64,000 bases of DNA, from assembly GCA_963797975.1 (NCBI GenBank), contig CAWCRH010000003.1:71099-135098 (forward strand). Direction: 5' to 3'. Positions 3,476 to 63,413 of this stretch are shown here, one piece after another. The first letter of the stretch is position 1; every line of letters begins with the position of its first letter. The notes beneath the pieces were generated by a model, which saw only the letters and a program-made list of their open reading frames with translations, made no database searches and had not been told where the DNA came from. This DNA is from an uncultured Thermoplasmata archaeon (GTDB lineage Archaea; Thermoplasmatota; Thermoplasmata; Lutacidiplasmatales; UBA184). The translations under genes were made by a program, and so were the position numbers.

Positions 3476-4237
3476 ATGGGTCAGGAGGGGCAGCGCTGGC
3501 AGCCCCAGGGCTACGCGACGCACGCACCGTTCGTGCCGGAACTCGGCCGGCCCCTGCTCGACCTGCTCAACCCTCAGCCCGGGGAGCGGGTGCTCGACAT
3601 CGGGTGTGGGACGGGCGTGCTCACTTCCGACCTCGTCACCCGGGGGGCGTTGGTGGTCGGTATCGACGCCTCCCCGGAGATGGTGGCGGCGGCCCTGAGC
3701 CGGGGCCTGGACGCACGAGTCGTGGATGCCTACCGGCTTTCCTTCTCGCACGAGTTCGACGCCGCGTTCTCGAACGCGGCTCTTCACTGGATGTCACGGG
3801 ACCCCGACGCGGTGCTTCGCGGAGTGCATCGTGCACTGGTCCCGGAAGGGCGGTTCGTGGGAGAAATGGGCGGACCGGGAAACATCGCATCGATCCGCAC
3901 CGCATTACACGACGTGCTCCGGGAGCGCGGGGTCGACCCAGCCGCCGTCGATCCGTGGTTTTTCCCGACGGCCGAGGATTATGGCCGCCGTCTTGGCGAG
4001 GCAGGATTCCGGATCGAATGCCTCGAGACGTTCCCTCGCCCGACGCCCCTTCCCACCGGAATGGAGGGCTGGCTCGAAACGTTCGGAGGAGCTTTCCTCC
4101 AGGCCCTTACGGACAGGGAGCGACGGTCGGCCCGCGAGGAGATCATCCGTCGGCTGCGCCCGGAGCTCTGCGACAACACCGGTCTTTGGACAGCGCCGTA
4201 CGTTCGCCTAAGATTCGTCGTTCGCGCTCGCGGTTGA
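3476..4237 (+). CDS. Class I SAM-dependent methyltransferase (Tam-like)
   Basis: VLDIGCGTG, FDAAFSNAALHW; ATG 3476 preferred over the long upstream extension in the ORF track. Confidence 0.9.
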   Translation: MGQEGQRWQPQGYATHAPFVPELGRPLLDLLNPQPGERVLDIGCGTGVLTSDLVTRGALVVGIDASPEMVAAALSRGLDARVVDAYRLSFSHEFDAAFSNAALHWMSRDPDAVLRGVHRALVPEGRFVGEMGGPGNIASIRTALHDVLRERGVDPAAVDPWFFPTAEDYGRRLGEAGFRIECLETFPRPTPLPTGMEGWLETFGGAFLQALTDRERRSAREEIIRRLRPELCDNTGLWTAPYVRLRFVVRARG

Positions 4238-6554: not shown

Positions 6555-9500
6555 ATGTACCTCAAACGGCTCAAACTCAGGAACTTCAAGTCGTTCGCGG
6601 GCGCGGTAGAGATCCCGTTTGAGCCTGGGTTCACTGGTGTCGCGGGTCCGAACGGGATGGGTAAGTCGAACATCTCCGACGCGATCCTGTTCGTTCTCGG
6701 CCCTACCAGCTCGAAGGCCCTGCGCGCGGAGCGCCTTACTCACCTCTTCTTCAACGGCGGCTCTTCCAAGAAGCCGGCAACGGAATGCGAGGTCTCCCTC
6801 GTCTTCGACAACAAGGACAAGATGCTGCCGGTCGACTCGGCCGAGGTCGAGGTCACGCGGTACGTCAAGCTGGCACCGAGCGATCCCGACGGCTACTACT
6901 CCTACTTCTACATCAACGGAAAGCGAACGACCCAAGCCGAGATCGACTCAGCGCTCGCTCACGGCCGCCTCTCCGGAGATGGCTACAACCTCGTCCAGCA
7001 GGGGGACGTCAACAAGGTCGTTGCTATGGGCCCGGTGCCCCGACGCGAGCTCGTGGAGCGCCTCGCGGGGATCTCTCAGTTCGACGAGGAGCTCCAGCGT
7101 GCGGAGAGTAAGCGCGCGGATCTCGACACGAACCTCGACCGGATCAAGACGATCCTGGGAGAGGTCAAGAGCCACCTTTCCGGATTAGAGTCACAGCGAC
7201 TCCAAGCGATTCGTTACAAGGAACTCCAGGAGTCCAAGCGCCGGAACGAGGCGCGCTTGGCCCGGGCCGACCACATGATGGCCGCCCAGGAGGTCGAGAC
7301 ATGCCGTCAGCAGCTCGAAGCCTCTCGGGCCGAGATTGCGCACTTGACGGAGGAGCACTCCGCTCTGACGCAGGCCCGGGACGCGCTCCTCGAGAAGATT
7401 GCCAGCCTGGACGCGGAGATCGCGAAGGCCGGTGGTGAAGAGGCGCGCAAGTTCCGAGCCGAGCTCGATGCTAAGACCCTCGCCCACGCCCGGCTCGTGA
7501 CGAACCTAGAGCACCAGCAAGAGGCCCTCACCACGATCCAGGCCACCCTGACGGAACTGACGGCGCACATTTCCGCCGACGAAAAGGAGCTCGAGCACAA
7601 CCAGGCGGATGAGAGCGAGCACGCGAAGGCCCTCACCCAGGTCTCTTCCAAGGCCGAGGAGGCCGCGAAGGGACTCGCGGCGATCACGGGCGACGCCGAG
7701 CACTCCCAGAAGAAGCTCGCCGGCGTACGAAAGCGGCAGCTCGAGCTCGAGCGAGTCCAGGCCGAGAAGAGGACCGCGTGGCAACAGGCCGTAGAGAAGC
7801 GAGAGGCTACCCGCGCCGCCGTGGAAGCGGCCGAGCGGGCTCAAGCGTTGGCCGAGGACGACCAACGGCACCGGATCGTCGAGGTCAAGGACCTCGAGCT
7901 CCGCTTGAAGGAATCCGGCCCCGGCGGCCCGGGTGGCAAGGGCGGCTCGACCTCCGACCTTCAGAAGGAGCTCTTCCAGCTCAAGTCGAAGGAAAAGGCG
8001 CTCACCTCCGAGGCGCAGCGCATCGGCCTCGAGCTCCAAGAACTCAACCGCCAGTACATGGCGCTGGACGCCCGCCTCAAGGTCCGAGCGGAAGCCTCGG
8101 GTCGACCGGGAACCCAATCCGCGGTCGATTTCATTCTCGCCCAGCGTAACCTCGGCAAGCTCTCCGGGATCCGGGGCACGGTCGAGGAGCTCTCTCACTA
8201 CGATGCGAAGAACCGGGTCGCGCTCGAGGTCGCCGGTGGGGCGCGCTTCCAGGGGATCGTTGTTGACAGCGACGCGACCGCGGAAGAGTGCATCCGCCTC
8301 CTTCGCACCGAGAACCGTGGCCGCGCCACCTTCCTTCCGCTCAACAAGATGCTGTCCGGGCGCCCCAAGGGAAAATCCCTGATCGCGGCTCAGGCGGCGG
8401 GAGCCGTCGGGTTCGCGGTCGACCTCGTGAAGTTCGATGAGGAGCTGCGTCCGGCGTTCTGGTACGTCTTCGGCGAGACCGTCGTCTTCGACGACCTCGG
8501 GCACGCTCGCACCCAGATGGGAGGTGTCCGCCTGGTCACGATGGCCGGGGACCTGATCGAGGCCGCCGGTGCGATCACCGGTGGCTCCTTCGACAAGTCC
8601 CGGGGCACGAAGGCGGCCGAGAGCGTCGTCGAGCTCAAACGCATCGGCGAAGAGCTCAAGGAAAAGAGCGAGGCGGAGTCCGCTGCGCGCACCGAGCTCG
8701 GGAAGATCACCGAACGCATCCGTGAGATCAGCAACGAGCTCGCGAAGCGATCGATCGAAGCGAGCGCCCACGATTCCACGCGCCAAGTGCTGGAGAAGGA
8801 ACTCGCCCAGGCCCGGCTACGTCTGAAGGAGGTCTCCGACAGGATCGCGGCCGCAGTGGCCGCCCACACTGGCGCGGAGAAATCCCTCGGTCAGGCGGAA
8901 GAGGCCGTCACGGGTCTTTCCTCGGAGCTCGAGGAGCTCACCGCCGAGATCACGACCAGCCGGGAAGAGTTCTTGAGCCACCTTCCGAGCCAGGCTTCCC
9001 AACGAATCCGGGAGCTCCAAGCCAATGTCCAGTCCGCGAACGACGAGCGCGTGCGCATCAACGGGGAGCTCGAAGGGATCCGGGCCTCGATGAACGCGCT
9101 CGCGGCGCGCCTCGAGGAGCAACGGCAACGGCTCAAGGCCGTCCAGGGCGAGCTGGCCGCCAAGAAGAGCGAGATCGCTCAAACCCAGAAGGCCGTCACT
9201 CACGCGAAGGCTGCGGTCGAGGCGCTCAAGCGGGTCGAGACCCAACAGGGTTCGACGGCGCTGGATCTCCAGGAGCAGAAGCGCGCCTTCGACGCGGAAC
9301 GCCTCACTCTCGCCGAGAAGGTGGCGACCGCTGCCACCAAGCTGGAGACCCGCACGACGCTTCTCGGCCAAGAAGAGAGCCGCCTCGCGGTCGCCGAACA
9401 GAAGCTCAACGAGATCGCCGAGGCCCTCAAGGAGTTCCCCGCGACCGAGGCGGATGAGAAGCCGGTGCCGCTGGATGAGCTCAAGCGGGCCATCGCCTCC

Positions 9501-10181: not shown

Positions 10182-11182
10182 CGATCTCCCTTGGCGAGGC
10201 CCAGGAGCTCGCCCGAGAGCCCGCCCTCCCCTCCCCTTCCGTCGAGGTCGTCGCCCCGCCCCCGGTATCGCGGGAAGCCGCGGAGAACGTCCTACGCTAC
10301 CTCGTCTTCCACCATTCCCTCATTGGCGAGGGAGAGGGTCAATCGGCGCTCTTGGAGCGCTACATGAGTCTGGTAGAGAACCTCGAAGAGGGCCTGCACG
10401 TCGTGGTCGAAGACCCCTTCCAGAAGGCCACCGCGATGCTCTTCGAGCTCGTCATGAAGGAGGCGTTCGACCCGTGGGAGATCGACCTGGTACAGTTCAC
10501 CCGGGTCTACCTCGAGCGCTTCCGGTCCGAGGACGGGGTCGACTTCGGCGTCGCCGGCCGGCTCCTCTTCATGGCCTGGAACATCCTCTACCTCCAATCG
10601 GAGGAGATCCTGCACCACCGCGACCTCCCCCCCGAGGGGATGGATCCGGCAGATGACGGGGCCCTGATCGATCCTTCTCAGGAGACCTACCTCGACCTCA
10701 TGGTGACCCCGGAGGCGGTGGACGTCACGTCCACGATCCTGGATGGCGCGACACCGTCCCCGCTTCTCGAGATGGTGCGCCACCCCGAGACGAGACCGGT
10801 CTCGCTGCTCGAGCTCGTCCGCGCCCTGGATGAGGCGGAGGAAGACGCTCGCAGGGCCGCCCGCGTCCAAGAGCTGCGCGACCGGCTCCGGGAGGAGCAG
10901 CGAGCCCCGCCGGAACTCCTCGTCCATGGCGACATCCCCGACCGCGACGTGGAGGACGCCTGGAAGGGGGTCAGCCAGCATGCGGTCGGAGAGGCGTTCC
11001 CGTTCCTCGAGCTTTGGAAGGCAGCCCAGGGCCGAGGCCGGCTCGTCTCGACCCTCCTCGCCGCGCTCTACCTGGCCCGGGAGGGTGCTGTCGCCTTCCA
11101 GCAGGAGAAATTGATGGAGACCCCGGTGCTTCTGGTCCGTCAGGTCGAGACGCGAACGCCCCACATGGAGGTGGCCTCGTAG
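10178..11182 (+). CDS. scpA: Segregation and condensation protein A (kleisin)
   Basis: DPWEIDLV.FT..YL, R.VSL.ELV.AL, LAALYLA.EG motifs; ATGA overlap with smc. Confidence 0.9.
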   Translation: MTISLGEAQELAREPALPSPSVEVVAPPPVSREAAENVLRYLVFHHSLIGEGEGQSALLERYMSLVENLEEGLHVVVEDPFQKATAMLFELVMKEAFDPWEIDLVQFTRVYLERFRSEDGVDFGVAGRLLFMAWNILYLQSEEILHHRDLPPEGMDPADDGALIDPSQETYLDLMVTPEAVDVTSTILDGATPSPLLEMVRHPETRPVSLLELVRALDEAEEDARRAARVQELRDRLREEQRAPPELLVHGDIPDRDVEDAWKGVSQHAVGEAFPFLELWKAAQGRGRLVSTLLAALYLAREGAVAFQQEKLMETPVLLVRQVETRTPHMEVAS

Positions 11183-39029: not shown

Positions 39030-40348
39030 GCGCCGTTCCTCATCGGTCGCCGCTCACCGGACTCTCCGGCGACGTTCGTCGTCAGTCGCCGTTCGACCTC
39101 CTCTTTCGACGAGGCGCTTGCGAGGGCCCAGAGGAGCTTCACATAGGCGGTCTCAGGGATCATGTCGCCGAGGTAGGTCACACCCGAGCGCACGAGCGTG
39201 CGTCCGGTCGCATAGACGAACGGCTCGACCGCCCCCTCGAGACACTGGGTCGTCATCGCGACGGTGATGCCGGCGGCGGTGGCCCGTCGAATCCAGTCAA
39301 GGTGGGCCACGTTAAGATGCCCGAGCCCGGTACCGGCCAGAACGATGCCGCGCAGCCCCCGTGCGAACATCTCGGCGCGCTCCGGTGATAAGCCAGGGTA
39401 GAACCAGAGCAGACCGCCGCGGTCATCGAAGCCCCCCGTGAGCGCCACCGGTCCGGGGACCGACGGGCGAACCGGAGCGTCCCAGCGGACGTCGTCTCCC
39501 ACGACATATCCGAGCGGGCCAACGTTGCGGCTACGGAAGGCGTCGCGCCGGGTCGAGTGCATCTTGCGTACCCGCGTTCCCCGGTGAATCGCGAAGCGGT
39601 CGTCCGAAACGCCGGCGTGCATCACGACCACGACCTCTCCGACCCCCGGCGTGCGCGCGACCTTGGCGGCTGCGCGAAGGTTCGACCGACCATCGGAGCT
39701 CGGTCGGTCGGGCGATCGTTGGGCACCCACGAGCACCACCGGCCCGGGAAGGGCCGGGAAGAGGAACGAGAGCGCCGCGGCCGTGAAGCCGAGAGTGTCC
39801 GTTCCGTGGGCGATCACGACCCCTCGCGAGCCTTCGTCGAACGCCGTGCGGACGGCCTGCGCCAACAGGACCCAGTCCGCGGGGACGATGTTCTCGCTCA
39901 GGCGGTCGAAGACCGGGACGACACGCACGCGACCGTCGGCCTCGATCTCGGGGAAGAGCGACAGGAGCTCTCGCTCGTTCTGGACGGGGCTCACCCCGCC
40001 GGTCTCGTAGTCGACCCGCGAGGCGATCGTGCCGCCCGTGGTGAGGAGGGCGATGTCCGCACCTACTTTGCTGGCCTCCGTCGGGGGCCTAGCGGCCGAG
40101 GTGTCTCGCGGTTCATGGGCGCGCCGTGGCGGGCCTCCTAAGCGGTAACGGGTCGCGGGGGCGATCGCAACCCCGACATTGTATCCGCTCGCGAGCTTGA
40201 TCTGAAGGATGCGCTCACCGGAGAAGTCATGATGCGGAACGATCGTCCCTGCCCATACGCGGCCCTCCGCGTCGTTGACCTCGATCGCCTGACCCATCGG
40301 TAGGGACCGGAGCTTCTCCCACGCGTCCTTTGAGGAATCCGGGGCCAT
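39026..40348 (-). CDS. gatD: Glu-tRNA(Gln) amidotransferase subunit D
   Basis: IKLASGYNVG, TGGTIASRVDYETG, HGTDT, GAQRSPDRPSSD, RKMHSTRRDAF. Confidence 0.97.
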   Translation of the reverse strand: MAPDSSKDAWEKLRSLPMGQAIEVNDAEGRVWAGTIVPHHDFSGERILQIKLASGYNVGVAIAPATRYRLGGPPRRAHEPRDTSAARPPTEASKVGADIALLTTGGTIASRVDYETGGVSPVQNERELLSLFPEIEADGRVRVVPVFDRLSENIVPADWVLLAQAVRTAFDEGSRGVVIAHGTDTLGFTAAALSFLFPALPGPVVLVGAQRSPDRPSSDGRSNLRAAAKVARTPGVGEVVVVMHAGVSDDRFAIHRGTRVRKMHSTRRDAFRSRNVGPLGYVVGDDVRWDAPVRPSVPGPVALTGGFDDRGGLLWFYPGLSPERAEMFARGLRGIVLAGTGLGHLNVAHLDWIRRATAAGITVAMTTQCLEGAVEPFVYATGRTLVRSGVTYLGDMIPETAYVKLLWALASASSKEEVERRLTTNVAGESGERRPMRNGA

Positions 40349-40486
40349 GGCGCTCCGAACGAGCGACTTACGCAGTTCCGTCGGCTATAAACGCTCCCGC
40401 GGGGGACCGGCGGATGCGCACGCCGGGCCCGGGATGCTTTCCGGAGCGGCGAAGCGTCGGCTAGAATTGCGGTCATCAGTCGGCTC

Positions 40487-40494
40487 TTTTATAG
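40487..40494 (+). promoter_or_regulatory. Candidate TATA box for tRNA-Arg
   Basis: TTTTATAG ~46 bp upstream of the mature 5' end. Confidence 0.45.
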
Positions 40495-40539
40495 ACGACC
40501 TTGCTCGGAGGCGGGGGACAGAAGTCAGCAACACCGGGT

Positions 40540-40646
40540 GCCCGTGTGGGGTAGCTACGGGTTCGGGCCCATTCCCGACCCGCTACACTGGATTATCCTA
40601 GAGGCCTGCGGAGCCTCAGACCTGGGTTCGAATCCCAGCACGGGCG
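40540..40646 (+). tRNA. tRNA-Arg(GCG) with a 32-nt D-loop intron (40557-40588)
   Basis: Acceptor GCCCGTG/CACGGGC+G, anticodon arm GAGGC-CTGCGGA-GCCTC, T arm CTGGG-TTCGAAT-CCCAG; splice motif GTAG-CT^A-CGGGT...ACCCG-CTAC-AC^T. Confidence 0.93.
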
Positions 40647-40700
40647 TCCCTCATTTCGGGGCGAAGGATTCTTTATTAGACTGTGCGCCGTGGACCGGGC

Positions 40701-42008
40701 GTGACCCGGCGGTCTAGGCGTCTCGATCACCGGAGCCTGCTGGACGACACCAGGGTCCGGACGTGGTACGACGAGAACCGTCTGCGGTCAAGCCGTACTG
40801 CCGATGTCAATCTGCGCCAACTGGGGCTATGCCTGCACCAGATTGGACTCACCCCTACGACGCTCCTTGAGGAGGCAAGGGCCAACCCGCCACACCTCCG
40901 TGAACGTCTCATCGCCTATGCGACTGCGCTCCAGCGGAAGGGCCGGCTCAACTCGTACATCGCGAAGACCTTCGTGGGCGTCTCGAGCTTTCTCCGCCAC
41001 CACGAGATTGAATTCCGCGGCTTTCCGCGTGTAACGGTGGTAAGAGGGGCATCGGTGGAGAATGAGCGGGTGCCGACCCAGGGAGAGCTCGGGCGACTTC
41101 TCAGGGCCCTTCCACTCCGAGGCCAAGTCAGCGCGCTACTGATGGCCCATTCGGGACTGCGTCCGGGAGCGTTCTCGGTCTACCGGGCCGGGGACACAGC
41201 CCTCCGCCTTCGCGACCTCCCCGAACTGGAGATCGGCGAGCTCCGGATGCAGAAGGTTCCCTTCTTAGTCCGTGTGCCAGGTTCCCTGAGCAAGAACCGG
41301 AAAGGATACGTGACATTCGGCACACAGGAGCTGGCCGACGCGCTGATTGCCTACCTGAAGGAGCGCCGTTCCCGACCTCGGTACCGTCGGGGAAGGTCGG
41401 TCCGGCCCGAGGAACTCTCCCCCGACTCCCCCGTTGTAGCTGTCCGTGACACTGAGACCGAAACCGGCTTCGTTACGGTCAAAGCAGTGACCGCGGAGGT
41501 GCGCAGTGCCATGGCGAAGGTCGTTCCTGCCGATACGACGTGGCGTCCGTACGTCCTACGAAGCTATGCCTCGACTCAACTCCTCCTAGCAGAGTCGAAG
41601 GGCAAGATCACGAGGGATTTTCGAGAGGCAATCCTCGGGCATGACCTAGGAGTCAGCGGCCGGTACAATCTCTCAAAGAAGTTGCAGCCGTCAATGGTCG
41701 AGGAGATGCGCGCAGCCTACGCACGATGCGAGCAGTTCCTAGCGACTGCCTCCACCGGAGGAAACCGGTCGAACGCGGAGACATTCCGGGTGCTCTTGTC
41801 ACCGTGGTACACCGATGAGCAGATCGAGAAGATTGACCTGGACGACAACGCCGCCGTGATCGAAGCCCTGAGGAAGGGAGCGACAAGGGGCGCCGCGCCA
41901 AAACAGCAGGTCATTCCGGAGGCGGATCTTCCACACTACCTCGGCGAGGGGTGGGTGGCGAGGATGCCCATCAACGGCTCGAAGTTCGTCGTCGAGCGGA
42001 CGGTGTGA
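40701..42008 (+). CDS. Tyrosine recombinase/integrase (Thermoplasmata type)
   Basis: SGLRP (Arg I), SKNRK, RPYVLRSY (HxxR variant), LGH, RY nucleophile; TATA-like TTTATTA ~25 bp before GTG 40701. Confidence 0.92.
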   Translation: MTRRSRRLDHRSLLDDTRVRTWYDENRLRSSRTADVNLRQLGLCLHQIGLTPTTLLEEARANPPHLRERLIAYATALQRKGRLNSYIAKTFVGVSSFLRHHEIEFRGFPRVTVVRGASVENERVPTQGELGRLLRALPLRGQVSALLMAHSGLRPGAFSVYRAGDTALRLRDLPELEIGELRMQKVPFLVRVPGSLSKNRKGYVTFGTQELADALIAYLKERRSRPRYRRGRSVRPEELSPDSPVVAVRDTETETGFVTVKAVTAEVRSAMAKVVPADTTWRPYVLRSYASTQLLLAESKGKITRDFREAILGHDLGVSGRYNLSKKLQPSMVEEMRAAYARCEQFLATASTGGNRSNAETFRVLLSPWYTDEQIEKIDLDDNAAVIEALRKGATRGAAPKQQVIPEADLPHYLGEGWVARMPINGSKFVVERTV

Positions 42009-42098
42009 ATCACTCCCGCGTCGCAAGGCCGGCGGCGCGGGGTCCCGTCCGGGATCGGGGCGATTTCAGGCTTGGGAGGTCATTGTTAACAGGAGGTG

Positions 42099-42170
42099 CT
42101 GTAACCCGTCGCGGCTTTGCCGGTCATCTGTGGACGGCCGTCCGGCCGACAACCCGCGACAACGTTACAG
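42099..42170. repeat. Long imperfect hairpin, copy 1 (CTGTAAC...GTTACAG)
   Basis: CTGTAAC/GTTACAG, GTCGCGG/CCGCGAC and TTGCCGGTC/GGCCGACAA arms; homologous to 42797-42897. Confidence 0.8.
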
Positions 42171-42486
42171 AACCCCGAGCGGTTGACCGCCTGCGTCGAC
42201 CGGATCCCGTTGAAGCGACGGGTCAACGATCGCGCTCCGCGACCGGTGCGCGACCGCCACTCCCCGAGGGTAAGCGGTCAACCTGTCGACCGAGTTCGCG
42301 GTAGCGAACATGGTCGATGGTATCCGGACTGCGAGTGCGGCTCGCGCCGTGTGGCTCTGGTTCGGACGACCGAGTACAGGGTGCCGAAGGCACCCCTCTC
42401 GGAGAGAGGGTTCCCCACCGGGGAACCGCTGGGGAAGGGGGCGGCGTGAAGATGCCGTGCGGATGCGCCTAGTGCCGGATCTGCAC

Positions 42487-42630
42487 GGCTGAGTCCCCGC
42501 CACAATCCCCGGTACAATCCCCGGCACAGTTCCCGGCACAGTTCCCGGCACAGTTCCCGGCACAGTTCCCGGCACAATCCCCGGCACAATCCCCGGCACA
42601 GTCCCCGGCACAGTCCCCGGCTGAACCCCC
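42487..42630. repeat. Tandem array of twelve 12-bp units, consensus GGCACA(A/G)T(C/T)CCC
   Basis: Ten core units (42499-42618) bracketed by two GGCTGA-type variant units. Confidence 0.95.
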
Positions 42631-42796
42631 GCTCGGCCGGGATCCCCACCCGGCGGGGCTATCCGGGCGGGGAGCCACCGCGGGGGGCCACCGTGCGGTG
42701 GTACCACCGGGCGCGCGTGGTGGACATGTGCACACAGCGAACACAGCGCGTGCACACTGTAGCGACCTGCCGAAGGCCCCGCCAACCGCTCGGGTG

Positions 42797-42897
42797 CTGT
42801 AACCCACCGCGGCTTTGTCGGTCATCTGCAGACGGTAGTTCGCTTTGATTACAATGTAATCACACTGACCGGCCGACAAGCCGCGAGAACGTTACAG
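42797..42897. repeat. Long imperfect hairpin, copy 2 (CTGTAAC...GTTACAG)
   Basis: CGCGGCTTTGTCGGTC/GGCCGACAAGCCGCG stem with one extra T; loop contains the inverted repeat TGATTACA-A-TGTAATCA. Confidence 0.8.
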
Positions 42898-43163
42898 AGC
42901 CAGGCAAGCGAGACCCGCATGCGGGTCTTTCCCCAGGCATCACGAAGTTTGGACGTGGAAAGGGTAACCCAAAATTGGCCGAACCGATTGCCGACATCTC
43001 AGCCCGCTCTTCCCCACCGGTTTGGTAAGAGAGGCCGGACTCCTTCTGAGGTGGCAACTTGCCACCTGAGTCGCTCTTCTTCACGCCGCCTCGTTGCCCT
43101 TTGTGACGTGTACCCCGTACTTCTTCTCACCTGAGGGAGGGGTTGGGGGAGGGATTCCTTCGT

Positions 43164-44000
43164 TCATGTGGACACCTCTTCCTGGACCTTCTGCGCGAAC
43201 TCTCGCGGCGTGAGATACCCGAGCGACGAGTGGGGTCGCTCTGTGTTGTAATCGTCAATCGCCTCGGCCAGCCGCTGCCGCGTCGTGTAGAAGCTCTCCG
43301 GCTCCCGCAGCCACAGGTAGTCCTGCTTCAGGTGCCCATGGAACGACTCCTGAAGTCCGTTGTCCTCGGGCCGCTTCTTTCGGGTCCATCGCAGATCGAG
43401 TCCAAGGAGCTTCGTCCCCTCTCGGAAGCGCTTCGCGATGAACTGAGCTCCCTGGTCGGTGACCAGGACGGTGCCCGGAGCCTGGAGCAGCCTCGGGAAC
43501 CGCGTCGCCACCGCTCCCTCGACCACCGAGAGTGCCTCCGCGGCGCCACACGTCGGGAAGAACTCCCAGTGGACCACTTCGCGCGTGCAGGCGTCGAGGA
43601 TCGCCATCAGCGGGCACGGACCGAAGTCGGTGGTGTCCACCTCGGTGAGGTCGGTGTACCACCGTTCGTTCGGCCGCTCGGCGCTGAGGCGTCCGGTGGG
43701 AGGAAGACGAGGCCGAGGGAAGTGGGCGGGGCGCAGCAGTCCCTCGGCCGCCATCAGCCGGTGGACCCGCTTCCGATTGACCCGGAGCCCTTCCCGGCGA
43801 AGGACGGCCCACACCCGTCGCACACCGAAGGTTGGGCGGGCAAGGGCCACCCGACGGACCGCGGAGCGAATCTGCGGCTCATCGGATCGGGTTCGTCGAT
43901 GAGGCGTCTCTCGGGGCTCGAGGTAGAGTGCCCGTCGGGAGAGGCCGACGAACTCGGCGGCGTGGCGCTTCGAGAGCTCGAGGGTGAGCATCGTCCTCAC
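43164..44000 (-). CDS. IS3 transposase OrfB (DDE)
   Basis: FGVRRV, NRKRVHRLM, W.TDLT, TDQGAQF, NG..ESF, YN.ERPHSSLGY.TP. Confidence 0.95.
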   Translation of the reverse strand: MRTMLTLELSKRHAAEFVGLSRRALYLEPRETPHRRTRSDEPQIRSAVRRVALARPTFGVRRVWAVLRREGLRVNRKRVHRLMAAEGLLRPAHFPRPRLPPTGRLSAERPNERWYTDLTEVDTTDFGPCPLMAILDACTREVVHWEFFPTCGAAEALSVVEGAVATRFPRLLQAPGTVLVTDQGAQFIAKRFREGTKLLGLDLRWTRKKRPEDNGLQESFHGHLKQDYLWLREPESFYTTRQRLAEAIDDYNTERPHSSLGYLTPREFAQKVQEEVST

Positions 44001-44311
44001 GATCTCCCTCCGTCGTTTTTTCCCTCGGAGCTACCCGTGAGCTCCTCCTTGAACACCTGCAGCGCGATCGCCTGCTCGGCGATCAGGCGCTTGAGCCGAG
44101 CGATCTCCTGACGTTGTCGTTGGCTGTCGGAGCCTTGCCGGCTCTCGAGACCTGCTTTCATCGAGACAAGGGCCCGTTCCTTCCACTCGTAGAACTGGGC
44201 GGAGTGGATCCCATGGGTCCGACAGACCGCCTCGACGTTCGCGTTCGGGCGCAGACCCTCCAGCACGATGCGGAGCTTCTCCTCGCCACTCCAGTGCTTC
44301 CGGGTAGTCAT
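43997..44311 (-). CDS. IS3 transposase OrfA (HTH)
   Basis: WS.EEKLRIVLE, VCR.HGI...QFY.W, EIARLKRL; A-AAA-AAC slippery site near its 3' end. Confidence 0.92.
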   Translation of the reverse strand: MTTRKHWSGEEKLRIVLEGLRPNANVEAVCRTHGIHSAQFYEWKERALVSMKAGLESRQGSDSQRQRQEIARLKRLIAEQAIALQVFKEELTGSSEGKNDGGRS

Positions 44312-44492
44312 TCGGCCTCCGAGGCGGCGGGCAGGCCGCAGGGGTTCTCGTCGCTTTCGGGTAGGGTCAGCTCGCCCCTATTCCCCAACCAAGGTGAGTG
44401 TGCACTTCTACAGGGGTACGCGCCATTTGGCCTTCCGTTTCTCGGCCGCTATCGGAGGACCCGTTAAGGGCGCGTCCGGTCTCGGCCCCGTT

Positions 44493-44816
44493 ATGGACGA
44501 AGGGGAGCGCGAGCAGCTCAGAGTTGAACTGACCGAAGTGCTCGGCAGACACGGGATTCCGCCCGAGGACGCCATCAAGGTGCTGAACGCCTCTATTTGG
44601 TGGCGTGATCGAGCGCTAGAACCGCCGCGCGAGGGAACGGAGGAAGTAGAGGAGGTGGTGTTCCCGTCGAGCTACTATCGGTGTCTCCGATGCACGGAGG
44701 TGTTGTGGGGGCGGAACCAGTTCAGGTCGCACTACCGAAGGGCCCACCCCGAGATCCGTCCCGCGAGATTCGATTGCAGGAGAGTCGAGATGAAGGTGGC
44801 ACCACCCGCTCCCTAA
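44493..44816 (+). CDS. 107-aa C2H2 zinc-finger protein
   Basis: YRCLRC-x12-HYRRAH (C-x2-C-x12-H-x4-H); TATA-like GTTAAG ~28 bp upstream of ATG 44493. Confidence 0.65.
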   Translation: MDEGEREQLRVELTEVLGRHGIPPEDAIKVLNASIWWRDRALEPPREGTEEVEEVVFPSSYYRCLRCTEVLWGRNQFRSHYRRAHPEIRPARFDCRRVEMKVAPPAP

Positions 44817-45149
44817 ACGGTATTGGAGGTCTGGCGCGTCGCGCGCCTAACACCCAACCCAAACCGCCGCACCGCTTCCAGGGCTTGTTCACGCGTCGGC
44901 CCTTCCTGCCGCGTCCTCCACATCCGGGGCACGGAGAACGTCGCGCTCTCTCCCAGCGGCGCGTTGCAGGTGAGGCGCTCGGTCCGCGAAGCCTTCGCTT
45001 AGTTCGTGGAACGTAACCTTCGATGTGGGTTCGTTCGTCGCCCATCCCGCACGCCCGGCCGACCTAAACACCTCGTGCGGAAAAAGGTCAGCGGGTGCTT
45101 GGAGTCCCTCATAGGAGACATTTCCCGTCTCCCGGCCGAAAAACCGCCC

Positions 45150-46460
45150 GATATGTGGGTTCCGCCGTCGCTGCTGACTGAGGGAGAGTTCTCCCGATCT
45201 CGAAAGCTCACATTGTTCTGCGATAGTCAACTGCTCTCGCCGCACCCAGATATTCGCGCTTCAATGCGCAGGAAGACACTTCGCGGTCGAGGGCCCCAAG
45301 ACCGCTCGCTGCACACGTTTGCCAGCGGTCACCCGAGGGTGCCGCAGGGCGCCTTCCGCAGTCGGCGATCTTGGAGCGTCAGCACGGAAGGGTTCTCGAT
45401 TCTTCAGCATTGCGAAGATGATCTTCAACAGTGCGTGGGCCCCGGCCACCGAGCCCTTGCCCTTCCCGCGACGGCGGCTCACCCGTCGAGCGACCTTCGC
45501 CACTGTCCCACGAGGTACGCGGTGCCGGTGAGCCCAGGCGGCCTCCACCAGGAGCCAGCGGACCAGCGTCACGCTGTCCCGCTTCAAGTGCCCGTGGTAC
45601 TCCGATTCACCCGATTGATGGGTCGTGGGCGCCAGCCCCACGTATGAACTCACCTTGTCGACGCTCGAGAACCGCTCGATCGGGCAGAGAAACGCCGCGA
45701 GCGCCACCGAGATGATCTCCCCGACGCCGGGGATGGTGCTGAGCAGTTGGGCATCCTCGGAGGAGGCCCAGGCCCGATGGATCTTCTGGTCGAGCTGCCC
45801 ACAGGTGGTCTCGAGCGAGGTGAGGGTATCCAGTCCGCGGTCGACCTCCTCGAGATGGAGGTCTCGGAGAACCTCACGCTTCCGGCGGAGATTCAGGATC
45901 CCATCCTCATATTCGACCCCTCGACGGAGTAGGAAGCTGTAGATGTGATTCTTGACCGAGGTGGCTTTGCGTCGATAGAACACGCGTTCGCGGACGAGGT
46001 TCCGAAGGGCTCGAATCTCGGGTGGCGGTGCATACGACTCGGGAACGGCGTTCAGTCGGAGGAGAGTGGCCAGAGCCTCCGAATCGAGTTTGTCGGTCTT
46101 GAGGCTCGCTTCGGCGATGAGGCGGGTCTTGTAGGGATTGGAGAGGGTGACCGAGGCGCCTGTCGCCTCCGCTGCGTCGAAGAAATGCTCCCAGAGAGTG
46201 CACGCCTCGAGAACGACGTGCTTGCGTCCGGGAAGCCGCTCGAGGTAGTTGATCAGCTCAGCGTCGGTGGCTCCGAACTCCGCCTGACTCACTTGCAAGC
46301 CGCCGGCGTCGAACGCGGTCGCGTAGACACTCTTTCGGTGGACGTCAAGCCCGACATAGACCGATTCACTCACATTCTCCATGAGGCGCCTCGAGGTGGA
46401 GGACACGAGGCGCCTGCGATGGGCTTTCCGCCGGACCATCGGCGGAACCCATCATGTCCA
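45150..46460 (-). mobile_element. IS110-family element, IS1111-like subgroup (ends approximate)
   Basis: 12-bp subterminal inverted repeat TGGGTTCCGCCG (45156-45167) / CGGCGGAACCCA (46440-46451) around a DEDD transposase; no target duplication seen. Confidence 0.75.
45261..46382 (-). CDS. IS110 family DEDD recombinase/transposase
   Basis: YVGLDVH, VLEA, KTDKLDS, TIPGVG, YVGLAP..HQSG (catalytic Ser); probable start MENVSES. Confidence 0.93.
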   Translation of the reverse strand: MENVSESVYVGLDVHRKSVYATAFDAGGLQVSQAEFGATDAELINYLERLPGRKHVVLEACTLWEHFFDAAEATGASVTLSNPYKTRLIAEASLKTDKLDSEALATLLRLNAVPESYAPPPEIRALRNLVRERVFYRRKATSVKNHIYSFLLRRGVEYEDGILNLRRKREVLRDLHLEEVDRGLDTLTSLETTCGQLDQKIHRAWASSEDAQLLSTIPGVGEIISVALAAFLCPIERFSSVDKVSSYVGLAPTTHQSGESEYHGHLKRDSVTLVRWLLVEAAWAHRHRVPRGTVAKVARRVSRRRGKGKGSVAGAHALLKIIFAMLKNREPFRADAPRSPTAEGALRHPRVTAGKRVQRAVLGPSTAKCLPAH

Positions 46461-46574
46461 CATTGATGACGGCAGCCCGAGCGCGTTTTGCGCCTAGTTT
46501 GGCGTGCAGAGGGCCATCTGCATCGCGGGATGGCCCGAGCGCTGACAAGCGGAGAATCTGCGTTCCGCAATTCG

Positions 46575-60559: not shown

Positions 60560-63413
60560 GTGAGAGAGCGTCTCGTCGTTGTGCTCGCGCTCTTCGTCGG
60601 TGTAGTGATGGTCGGCTCGGCGGTCGGGCTCGTCGCTGCTTTCCCGGCCTCCGCAGGGGTCCGCTCCCTCAGTGGGGTTGCTGGTTCGGGCGCGCCCACG
60701 CTGCCCCCCGCGTTCTTCTCGACGGGAGAGAACGCTTCGGTGGTCCTGGGGAAATCGAACTTCACGGTGTCACCCGCGCTCACCAACGCCTCGACCCTGT
60801 GCGACTCGAACACGGCCACGTTCGACGCCGCGGGGGATCTGTGGGTCGCGGACTACTGCGACAATCGTGTCCTCGAGTTCCTGCCGCCCTTCTCCAACGC
60901 GATGGGGGCGCGTCTCGTCCTAGGCCAGGCGAACTTCACCGGAAATGCCGCCGGCACGAGCGCCGGGAGCATGGCCCAACCGAGCGCCCTCGCCTTCGAC
61001 GGCTAGCGGAGACTTGTGGGTCGCCGACACCTTCAACAACCGGGTCCTCGAGTTCCAGCCGCCGTTCACCTCCGGCATGGCTGCCCACGTTGTGATTGGC
61101 CAGGCGACCTTCGACACGAAGGGCGGGGGGAGCGCGAGCGGCCAACTGGACGGTCCGGACGCCGTGGCGTTCGTCGCCTCGGGGGATCTCTGGGTCTCCG
61201 AGTTCCTGAACAACCGCCTGACCGAGTACGCACCCCCGTTCGAGGACGGCATGCCCTCTTTGGTCGTGCTCGGACAACCCAGCTTCGGTCCTTCCGCCCC
61301 GGGAATCGGGGCGAACCACCTTCGCGGACCGTTCGGCATCGCCTTCAACGCGACCGGGGCACTATGGGTTGGTGACACCAACAACAACCGCCTGCTCACC
61401 TATCTCCCTCCGTTCTCTTCCGGCGAGAGCGCGAATCTCGTCCTCGGGCAACCGAACTTCACGAGGAACGCACCGGGGCTGGGTCCATCGTCCTTCTACG
61501 GACCGAACTATCTCTCCTTCGACTCGCTTGGAAACCTCTGGGTCGGCGACACGAACAACAATCGCGTGTTGGAGTTCCGGGCGCCCGTGACACCATCGAG
61601 CCGGGCCGCCCTCGTCCTCGGGCAGCCGAACGCAACCGCGCGTCTCGCCCACACTTCGCCGAATGGAATGAGCAACCCAGAGGAGGCGATCGTCGCGCCC
61701 GACGGGTCCGTCTATGTCGTCGAGTTCTCCAACAGCCGCATCCTTCGCTTCGCTCCGCCGCTCGCGAACGGGAGCGCGGCGGACCTCGTGATCGGGCAGG
61801 TCGGCTTCACGACCTCCACCACCGCACCGACCGCCGCCACCCTCGGACGAGCGGTGGTGAGTGCGTTCGATGCCGCTGGCGACCTCTGGGTGGTCGACAC
61901 CTACGACAACCGGGTGCTCGAGTTCCCGTCCCCGGTCGTGACGAACGAGGCGGCGACATTGGTGCTCGGGCAACCGACCCTCAACGACAGCTTGAACGGG
62001 CAATCGGGTTCGAACCTCTTCCTCCCCGAGGGGATTTCCTTCGCGCCGGACGGCGCCCTCTGGGTGTCCGACACGTTCAATAATCGACTGCTTGAGTTCG
62101 TGCCGCCGTTCACGACCGGAATGTCGGCGAGCGTCGTCCTGGGACAGCCGAACTTCACATCTTCCCAACCGGGCACCACCGACCGGTCGCTGGCGCTTCC
62201 CTCAGGCATCACCTTCGACGCGCAGGGGGACCTGTGGGTCGCTGACGCCCTCAACAGCCGGGTCCTCGAGTTCCGGCCGCCGTTCTCGACCGACGAAGTG
62301 GCCACGACGGTCATCGGTCAGGCGGACTTTACGAGCTTCCTTCCCGGGACGTCTCCCACGTCCCTCTTTTTCCCTTCCGGGGTAGCGTTCGACGCGAACG
62401 GCACGCTCTATGTTTCCGACACGGAGAACGACCGCGTCGTTTCGTTCCCCTCCCCGCTCACGATGGGGGAGGCCGCGACCGGTGTCGTCGGACAGACGAA
62501 TCTCTACTCCGGAGGGTCCGGGAGCGGCCCTGGCGCCCTCGATGGACCCGGTGGGATCGCGGTCGATCCCCGTGGCCAGCTCTGGGTGGCGGACACGGGG
62601 AACAACCGGGTCGTCCGCTACCCGCTTCCGATCACCGACGGGAGCCCCGCGAATCTGGCGCTCGGCCAAGGAAGTCTGACGACCCACGAACCGGGAACGA
62701 CTTCAGACGCGCTGCGGGGCCCAGCGGGGGTCACTGTCGACGCGGTCTATGGGGGAGTCTGGGTCGCCGATTACGGCAATAGCCGTCTCCTCTTCTTCCC
62801 GGGCAACGCGCTCGCCGTAGCGACCGGCACGGTAACGTTCGAGCAGGGGAAGGGCGCGGTCAACCAGCGGCCCGAGACCGGGGTCCAACTGAACTTCACG
62901 AGCGTCAGCGGGATCTCCTCGGCCGTGGTCGTGACCCAGCGGCTCGCCGGCGCGCCACGCATCGTCACGCCGACCGGGTTCGCGAACACTTCCTACTTTG
63001 ACGTCACCGTCACGCCGGCCGCGGGGGCCTTCGGCGTGGTGCAGACCTGCCTCACCGTCCCGGGCGTCCAGGTCCTCTCCGCGATTCTCTACTGGACGGG
63101 CTCTTCATGGGTGCTCGCAGGGTCGGTGAGCGCGAACAAGGACACCGCCTGCGCGATGGTACCGCTGTCCGCGCTCGGGGGGACTCCAATCGCCCTTTCC
63201 ATCCCCGGGCCCTCCGTTCTGCCTGCGTTCCCGACGCTGTACTTGTTCGGCTACGCGACGATCGGCTTCATCATAGTCGCCGTCGGCCTGATCCTGTTCA
63301 ACCTTCGCCGGCAGCGTCGTCTCGCCGCCCGCCCCCCGTCGGGGGGTTCACCGGGCCCTCCGCTCTCCTCCTCCGGAGGGCCCAAAGAGCCGTCGAAGCG
63401 CGGCCCCTCTTAG
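60560..63413 (+). CDS. Secreted, membrane-anchored NHL-repeat protein (12 repeats), frameshift near 61000
   Basis: Signal-like N-terminus; repeats FD..GDLWVAD..NNRVLEF.PPF..G..A..VLGQ.NF; C-terminal TM followed by RRQRR. Confidence 0.88.

Follow-up and report, generated by a model that had tools for sequence, protein, structure and literature searches.

HP, a dispersed hairpin repeat of uncultured soil Thermoplasmata: a probable miniature inverted-repeat transposable element with copies paired around translocated genes

Twin hairpins beside a tRNA-linked integrase gene

The DNA studied here is a stretch of 64,000 nt of contig CAWCRH010000003.1 from an uncultured Thermoplasmata archaeon (assembly GCA_963797975.1), and this whole stretch is called the window below. 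It contains two imperfect, homologous hairpins, W1 and W2, which are members of a repeat family that we name HP, and the nature of this family and of its paired copies is the subject of this study. The features at the locus are, in this order, a probable tRNA-Arg gene, the gene for a 441-aa recombinase, W1, 618 nt of intervening DNA, W2, an IS3 element and an IS110 element (IS, insertion sequence). W1 (42095–42174, plus strand, 80 nt) is made up of 11-bp inverted ends, a 2 × 3-nt internal loop, a G+C-rich inner stem and an apical loop, and W2 (42793–42901, plus strand, 109 nt) is the same element with an additional A+T-rich insert of 29 nt at 42836–42864. Both have the layout GGTGCTGTAAC, a spacer of 2–3 nt, the first arm of a G+C-rich stem, an apex, the second arm, (C)AAC and GTTACAGARCC, and they are 84–91% identical over the shared parts. 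The original prediction, which was made from the letters of this DNA, had described two homologous hairpins bounded by CTGTAAC and GTTACAG, and these cores are found exactly at 42099–42170 and 42797–42897; the conserved block extends beyond them by 4 nt on each side (GGTG...AACC in W1, GGTG...AGCC in W2). Folding of both copies, which had been suggested as a check, gave z-scores of −2.9 for W1 and −4.4 for W2 as plus-strand DNA, and none of 200 shuffled sequences folded as well. Both hairpins are spanned unchanged by short-read contigs from soil DNA runs, which confirms the assembly across them; among RNA runs, none was listed as covering this region. The insert in the apical loop of W2 is A+T-rich within a genome of 66% G+C and has its own palindrome (TGATTACA-A-TGTAATCA); it has the look of a minor insertion nested in the apex of the hairpin.

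The edge of the island is marked by the probable tRNA-Arg gene (40537–40646, plus strand), which was recognized by direct reading of the sequence and has an intron of about 35 nt in the D-arm region. The GCG anticodon and the place of the intron are what we take them to be from our own reading; the Rfam tRNA match at this position is below the threshold (21.4 bits), and ARAGORN called no tRNA there. The region from about 40486 to 40650 is 80–94% identical in nearly all of the 135 genomes that match a 2.8-kb query, out of 149 other genomes of the genus (these and the following genome counts include three unpublished genomes, G156–G158, on which no claim depends). The adjacent gene (40683–42008, plus strand) is predicted to encode a divergent tyrosine recombinase of 441 aa, the integrase of the island. 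The prediction is based on the motifs SGLRP, YVLRSY, GH and RY, which are invariant in three homologues and which we presume to be the catalytic motifs of a tyrosine recombinase, on Pfam Phage_integrase matches below the cut-off (E 0.09 for the window recombinase, E 7e-5 for its homologue in genome G171), on homologues that adjoin tRNA genes in G108, G171 and G166, and on a Foldseek comparison. In the latter, a weak AlphaFold2 model (pLDDT 62.7; TM 0.26–0.38) matched almost exclusively tyrosine recombinases, with XerA in the lead (E 2.7e-6), followed by IntI, Cre and lambda Int. The 441-aa protein had no match among PDB sequences.

The 618 nt between W1 and W2 (42175–42792) hold no credible open reading frame (ORF) and look non-coding, and no match to them was found in the 149 genus genomes among the matches listed. 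It had been pointed out that a minus-strand ORF is positioned between the hairpins in the way of a cassette gene. The geometry was confirmed, with an ORF of 206 aa at 42165–42785 whose stop codon lies inside the terminal stem of W1, and so was the suspected low complexity of the product, which is rich in arginine and proline. Neither Pfam nor NCBIfam gave a match below E = 1, the sole Pfam row at E ≤ 10 is MSP1_C (E 1.9), and a 12-nt tandem repeat runs through the ORF. We do not regard this ORF as a gene. The tandem array itself (42474–42645) consists of about 10–14 units of CGGCACAGTTCC and variants, without a coding signature.

Range, anatomy and structure of the HP family

HP copies are non-coding and 64–115 nt long. 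They end in the 11-bp inverted repeats GGTKCTGTAAC and GTTACAGMACC, and the interior is composed of an internal loop that is small and asymmetric (in most cases NN facing CAAC), a G+C-rich stem of 8–10 bp and a variable apex. For searches, we built the covariance model R1 from 6 copies and the model R2 from 25 copies. W1 reaches 98.1 bits and W2 83.8 bits with R1, and with R2 W1 reaches 69.1 bits on the plus strand versus 38.0 on the minus strand. In the source genome (G000; 8 contigs, 1.67 Mb, 74% complete), four copies were detected by nhmmer at E < 1e-21, and R2 added a fifth clear copy at C2:89042. Besides the window pair, this genome thus has a second pair on contig C2, with the copies 700 nt apart, and the fifth copy follows 4.5 kb further in inverted orientation. 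A search of relatives with a covariance model, as the original prediction had proposed, recovered the family in 17 of the 149 other genus genomes with R1 and in 28 with R2, which by our count amounts to 50 distinct places in 29 of 150 genomes overall. An exact-pattern scan of the genomes of 185,579 species gave 83 matches, 80 of which were scored and 7 of which passed clearly; six of the passing records are titled as a Thermoplasmata archaeon metagenome-assembled genome (MAG), and one is titled only 'bacterium'. In a metagenome collection, one of five pattern matches was a real HP copy. As judged from these searches, HP appears to be restricted to a single genus of uncultured Thermoplasmata archaea from soil. 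It matches no Rfam family, whether gathering or relaxed thresholds are applied, and no description was found in the literature with searches by general terms, not by the element sequence.

W1 and W2 are separated by 698 nt and closely related to one another within the window, which would suit a mere local duplication without wider meaning, the fallback that the original prediction had named. This reading is refuted and keeps practically no probability: there are three more copies in the same genome, namely the second pair and the fifth copy on another contig, the family is present in 28 of 149 other genomes, and the DNA inside the two pairs of G000 is unrelated, as no similarity was seen between the two cargos.

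It had also been claimed that the hairpins are structured and that their stems are conserved, and this holds for the family, in which the stems moreover covary. With 20 pairs counted over 25 copies, 88.8% of the cells are in standard pairs, versus 35–42% when the partner column is slid, and 21 double-change cells were observed versus 8.8 in shuffles, with none of 500 shuffles reaching 21. The terminal helix is paired in 94.4% of the cells across the 25 copies; it is kept in sequence, except for the compensated variant CTGTTAC/GTAACAG, and covariation is seen in the inner stem. There are 36 G.T cells versus 9 A.C cells, and the RNA fold of the plus strand is more stable in 18 of 26 copies. This is suggestive of a preference for the fold of one strand, with the restriction that the argument is partly circular, as the strand calls come from a model seeded on the plus strand.

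Such data would be expected if HP were mainly a structured RNA, either a hairpin that acts in cis on stability or processing, or a small RNA, with the terminal stem as a protein-binding site and with spread as a secondary matter. Several copies indeed lie 2–90 nt past a co-oriented gene, and the copies around an SRPBCC-like gene (described below) are kept, with changes, at seemingly orthologous places in G145, G170 and probably G161. We nevertheless consider an RNA function of this kind decidedly improbable: neighbouring genes show no orientation bias (by our count, 9 upstream genes point the same way as HP and 8 the other way), Rfam has no such family, there is insertion polymorphism with target duplications, and the arms of palindromic DNA can stay matched without an RNA function.

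Insertion polymorphism and pairs around translocated genes

Some HP copies are absent from the corresponding sites of relatives, and a few solo copies and pairs are flanked by duplications of 9 bp of the target. A solo copy in G049 is flanked by TACCTCGAG and TACCCCGAG (identical at 8 of 9 positions), and the 9 bp are present once at the orthologous empty site of G122, whose flanks are 95% and 89% identical. A solo copy of G122 has AACGGACGG on both sides, a perfect duplication. Two pairs are flanked as units, that of G080 by CGCCTCCGC and CGTCTCCGC and that of G177 by GGTTGGTGG and GGTCGGTGG, with 8/9 in either case; as a chance level, mismatched flanks give at least 8/9 in 1.3% of trials. 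The complete HP–gene–HP block of G177 is absent in G122, where its flanks are 3 nt apart, and in G049, and the enclosed gene, P0003, is found in G049 alone, without HP, 8 kb away. For the copies G109, G166a, G166c, G108, G122 and G177a no empty sites were found, and their flanks are paralogous, variable or rearranged. The 9-bp duplications, seen on solo copies and on whole pairs, together with the precise empty sites, point to insertion by a transposase with staggered cuts and not to a G|TT core exchange. The recombination of folded, attC-like sites that the original prediction had envisaged is not supported by these insertions.

Of the 50 HP places, 18 form nine same-strand pairs with copies 493–1429 nt apart; all nine pairs are in direct orientation, and arrays never have more than two copies. 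The enclosed DNA differs: nothing coding is found in the window pair, an SRPBCC-like gene of about 180 aa (our reading; no Pfam match) in the pairs of G000 contig C2, G161, G145 and G170, the membrane protein P0003 in G177, a 65-aa ORF plus an NfeD/ClpP-like protease in G108, a PKD-domain protein in G080, and about 430 nt without a family in G140. The SRPBCC-like gene (locus L013, 7899–8518; L131–L139) occurs in about 40 genus genomes with 72–91% nucleotide identity. In nine such loci that were fetched no HP was found, and the homology to the C2 cargo begins and ends precisely at the borders of HP. In G145, G161 and G170 the gene has the same orientation as HP, and in G000 it is inverted; the HP copies around it have shared flanks, and have the look of orthologues, in G145, in G170 and probably also in G161. 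In the two loci that were read, L131 and L134, the gene adjoins a tRNA-like stretch, and L134 has a tandem paralogue. A spacing of about 700 bp and a vague HUH look of the C2 ORF would be in line with an IS200/IS605 or RAYT element; this candidate was rejected, as the ORF is SRPBCC-like by our reading and G000 has no Y1 transposase.

P0003 is joined at the same nucleotide to two different upstream hairpins. In G177 it follows HP (..CAGTGCC|GTTCAACGC), and in G155 it follows a different hairpin of 81 nt, HP' (..GAGTACC|GTTCAACGC), while its own 3' HP is kept with 94% identity. These junctions, and the nine direct pairs around unrelated cargo, agree with the cassette-like boundaries that had been expected from the original prediction. 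HP' (GGTGCKGTATCTCTTC...GAGTACC) is itself present in two direct copies, 2046 nt apart, at 1815–1895 and 3861–3941 of locus L221 (G155:C137), which bracket the P0003 gene, a SWIM-domain ORF and one HP copy; no further copy was found in the remaining DNA examined, including all of G000.

We propose that HP is a MITE (miniature inverted-repeat transposable element) with 11-bp inverted ends and that the HP pairs are composite transposons, and we assign a probability of roughly 60% to this reading. A transposase acting in trans would bind the inverted ends and would insert HP by a 9-bp staggered cut. Two copies in the same orientation would offer one left end and one right end as the outer ends, and the whole HP–gene–HP unit could move as a composite transposon together with the enclosed gene. 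The fact that all pairs are direct would fit if one outer end had to be a left end and the other a right end. The features of the family are those by which MITEs are recognized, i.e., inverted ends, a duplication of fixed length (9 bp), small, non-coding, dispersed copies, and presence or absence between relatives. The window pair encloses 618 nt of non-coding DNA in a tRNA-linked island, just downstream of the island tyrosine recombinase. Most likely this pair is a composite that is old or has been rearranged, since a recognizable target duplication was lost or was never present.

Several observations weigh against this proposal. No 9-bp duplication was found at W1, at W2, around the W1..W2 unit (4/9) or around the C2a..C2b unit (6/9), and the case for the window copies consequently rests on their membership in the family. 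Among the solo copies, only 2 of 33 have a duplication of at least 8/9, with the other 31 at chance level, and the G177 pair has a right end that is degenerate past ...AACGT. One to five copies per genome is a low number for a MITE. An autonomous IS with HP ends was found neither in G000 nor at the extra end-like sites of five HP-bearing genomes (among the genomes examined were G109, G166, G177 and G108), although absence is not demonstrated in these MAGs. Some copies are probably old and stable, as suggested by the orthologous-looking SRPBCC-like loci. The inner-stem covariation and the G.T/A.C asymmetry are not needed by a model in which terminal inverted repeats act as duplex DNA, and a plain MITE model also leaves unaccounted for the strict direct orientation, the strand bias in the conservation of the hairpin and the repeated position after the island integrase, with the order integrase, HP, cargo, HP recurring in two genomes.

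In Acinetobacter, identical MITEs are found around different class 1 integrons and probably mobilised them, as described in PMC10969869. The MITEs treated in that source (Acinetobacter, Correia elements) are, like HP, small and non-coding, with terminal inverted repeats and a hairpin fold; they are dispersed in intergenic regions, with target-site duplication and presence or absence between relatives, and two copies can enclose and move intervening genes (PMC10969869). Unlike the known MITEs covered there, HP is found in one genus only and in 1–5 copies, it has a 9-bp duplication, every pair is direct, in most cases one ordinary gene makes up the cargo, the cognate transposase was not found, and there is strand-biased covariation in the internal stem. 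REPINs and their RAYT transposases offer another comparison: as presented by Bertels and Rainey (2011; PMC3116915), they share with HP the long hairpin from two inverted halves, the persistence within lineages and the compensatory changes, and HP differs from them by the lack of a GTAG/CGTC head and by a handful of copies versus tens to hundreds. A further difference is that HP has target duplications and that G000 has no Y1/RAYT gene; the RAYT/Y1 transposase family (PF01797) had no matches in G000, versus 6 of 14 control genomes with matches. Single-strand transposition by Y1 enzymes is not known to leave target duplications.

Few archaeal MITEs have been described, and those named in PMC10969869 are from Sulfolobus, Halobacterium, Haloquadratum, Desulfurococcus and several other archaeal genomes. 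The HP family provides a concrete case of single ordinary genes, such as those for the SRPBCC-like protein, the membrane protein, the protease and the PKD protein, that move between loci in uncultured soil Thermoplasmata, and it marks variable, island-rich parts of these genomes.

Resemblance to attC sites and genomic surroundings

The original prediction had seen in the hairpins a part of an integrase-linked module and had expected homologous hairpins near related integrases. This holds for some genomes. In G108, the order is again tRNA, integrase (48% identical to that of the window), HP, a different cargo and HP, with the first HP about 13 nt after the integrase stop codon, and in G166 a truncated integrase copy ends within 6 nt of an HP. 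As this layout recurs and the truncated integrase abuts HP, the association is not a pure coincidence. For most HP copies the expectation failed, which speaks against a functional link: an integrase lies within 1.5 kb at none of the 14 newer loci, within 10 kb of neither the C2 pair nor the G177 pair, and anywhere in only 5 of 17 twenty-kb loci, with integrase-to-HP distances of 2.9 kb in G171 and 6.8 kb in G165. Conversely, the integrase homologues in G109, G172 and G032 are without HP, and no other hairpin was found downstream of them.

An attC-like alternative to the MITE model would be that HP serves a gene-capture system of the integron type as the site at which folded DNA recombines. Strands would be exchanged at the terminal stem by a tyrosine recombinase, either the island integrase or the host Xer, and circular cassettes of cargo plus HP would insert at a resident HP, with direct HP repeats around each cassette as the outcome. 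The shape is suited to this, with a 7-bp terminal stem carrying AAC/GTT, a spacer that is unpaired, another stem and an apex that is variable in form and length. Archaeal integrons and integrase-less attC clusters (CALINs) exist (PMC9668308), and the attC sites and CALINs presented by Ghaly et al. (2022; PMC9668308) are, like HP, imperfect hairpins, of 60–140 nt, with AAC...GTT ends, an unpaired spacer and a variable apex, which occur as direct repeats around single promoter-less genes, with and without an adjacent tyrosine recombinase. CALINs are delimited there by at least two attC sites within 4 kb, a spacing in which all nine HP pairs lie. The direct orientation of all nine pairs, the order of tRNA, integrase, HP, cargo and HP in the window and in G108, the truncated integrase of G166 and the P0003 junctions with the kept 3' HP are what such a system would produce. 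In addition, the right-hand HP of the G177 pair breaks right after ...AACGT, a position that matches the attC crossover, and the strand asymmetry of the wobble pairs (36 to 9) also counts in favour.

We nevertheless regard this alternative as unlikely. The 9-bp target duplications and the empty sites without a resident HP do not agree with it. No IntI was found in the 74% complete G000, where the best TIGR02249 match reaches 83 bits versus a cut-off of 265 and is split where the IntI-specific part lies; the original prediction had cautioned that the window integrase is not IntI-like. Another caveat made at that time was also justified, as the ends CTGTAAC/GTTACAG have AAC and GTT but fail the consensus RYYYAAC/GTTRRRY, as quoted there, at two of four degenerate positions on each side. 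An extrahelical T had been pointed out in W2, but no single conserved one is demonstrable as a feature of the family, and across the 25 copies there are no conserved extrahelical bases or bulges and the inner stem is mostly uninterrupted. Arrays never exceed two sites, the adjacent recombinase is a tRNA-island integrase that is co-oriented with the cargo, most HP copies have no integrase nearby, and integrase homologues occur without HP. The wobble asymmetry favours the top strand of HP, whereas attC sites use the bottom strand. An excised circle had been suggested as evidence, and no excision joint was found at the hairpins in the contigs of four soil DNA runs over 40000–45200, contigs being a form of data that drops rare variants. 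We conclude that HP is probably not an attC site, and that the resemblance in shape is real.

One could also combine both ideas, with HP as the capture site of an archaeal, IntI-independent cassette platform whose loaded units later spread by transposition. The folded top strand of HP would be the substrate of the tRNA-island recombinase or of the host XerA, by which single genes would be loaded between direct HPs. We see this as a long shot. If true, it would represent a second, independently evolved integron-like system on a transposon-derived hairpin; since archaeal integrons have already been published (PMC9668308), an integron-like system would not be new in principle, but a non-IntI version would be.

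The flanks of HP contain 38 ORFs from 19 loci that are mutually unrelated, among them channels, acetyltransferases, TPR proteins, dehydrogenases and peptidases, and the copies tend toward variable, island-like DNA near tRNA genes and IS elements. In G109, HP lies where synteny breaks, between a truncated SnoaL-like gene and a conserved intergenic motif (...GCGCGGNGG...GGCTTCATGAAGGACGCGCGCGG). The motif is found after different genes in G109, G173 and G176 (L154/L018, G109:C3; L162, G176). On contig C2 of G000, a stand-alone HNH endonuclease ORF of 160 aa (L013, 8702–9184, minus strand) is located between the HP copy C2b and an IS110 copy; the best match of its HNH domain is the IscB model, with 50.7 bits versus a cut-off of 175. 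An HNH or other nuclease as the enzyme that spreads HP was rejected, as apart from this ORF none is found among the 38 ORFs at the other 19 loci. Mimicry of XerA/dif sites was rejected as well, since G000 has no short CTGTAAC..GTTACAG palindrome. An 85-nt 'twin palindrome' in locus L215 (G165:C5) proved to belong to a duplication that spans at least 650 nt (7848–8494 and 10264–10918), which carries this G+C-rich palindrome and lies between an integrase pseudogene and HP.

The IS3 and IS110 elements of the locus do not belong to HP. The IS3-family element (43103–44426, minus strand; orfA 43997–44311, orfB 43164–44000) was assigned by Pfam HTH_Tnp_1 and rve/rve_3, and two more copies in the genome are 98% identical. 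The IS110-family element (45147–46464, minus strand) was assigned by Pfam DEDD_Tnp_IS110 and Transposase_20; it has three copies in the genome with 99.9–100% identity, and a copy is also located 745 nt past the second HP pair on contig C2. Targeting of HP by IS110, or a bridge-RNA relation between the two, was rejected, as none of the three IS110 copies has HP-like flanks. At 60833–62640 of the window, a 174-nt periodic repeat occurs in nine copies, which are most likely NHL/beta-propeller blades encoded by a gene for a large surface protein, similar to the one beside the C2 hairpin pair.

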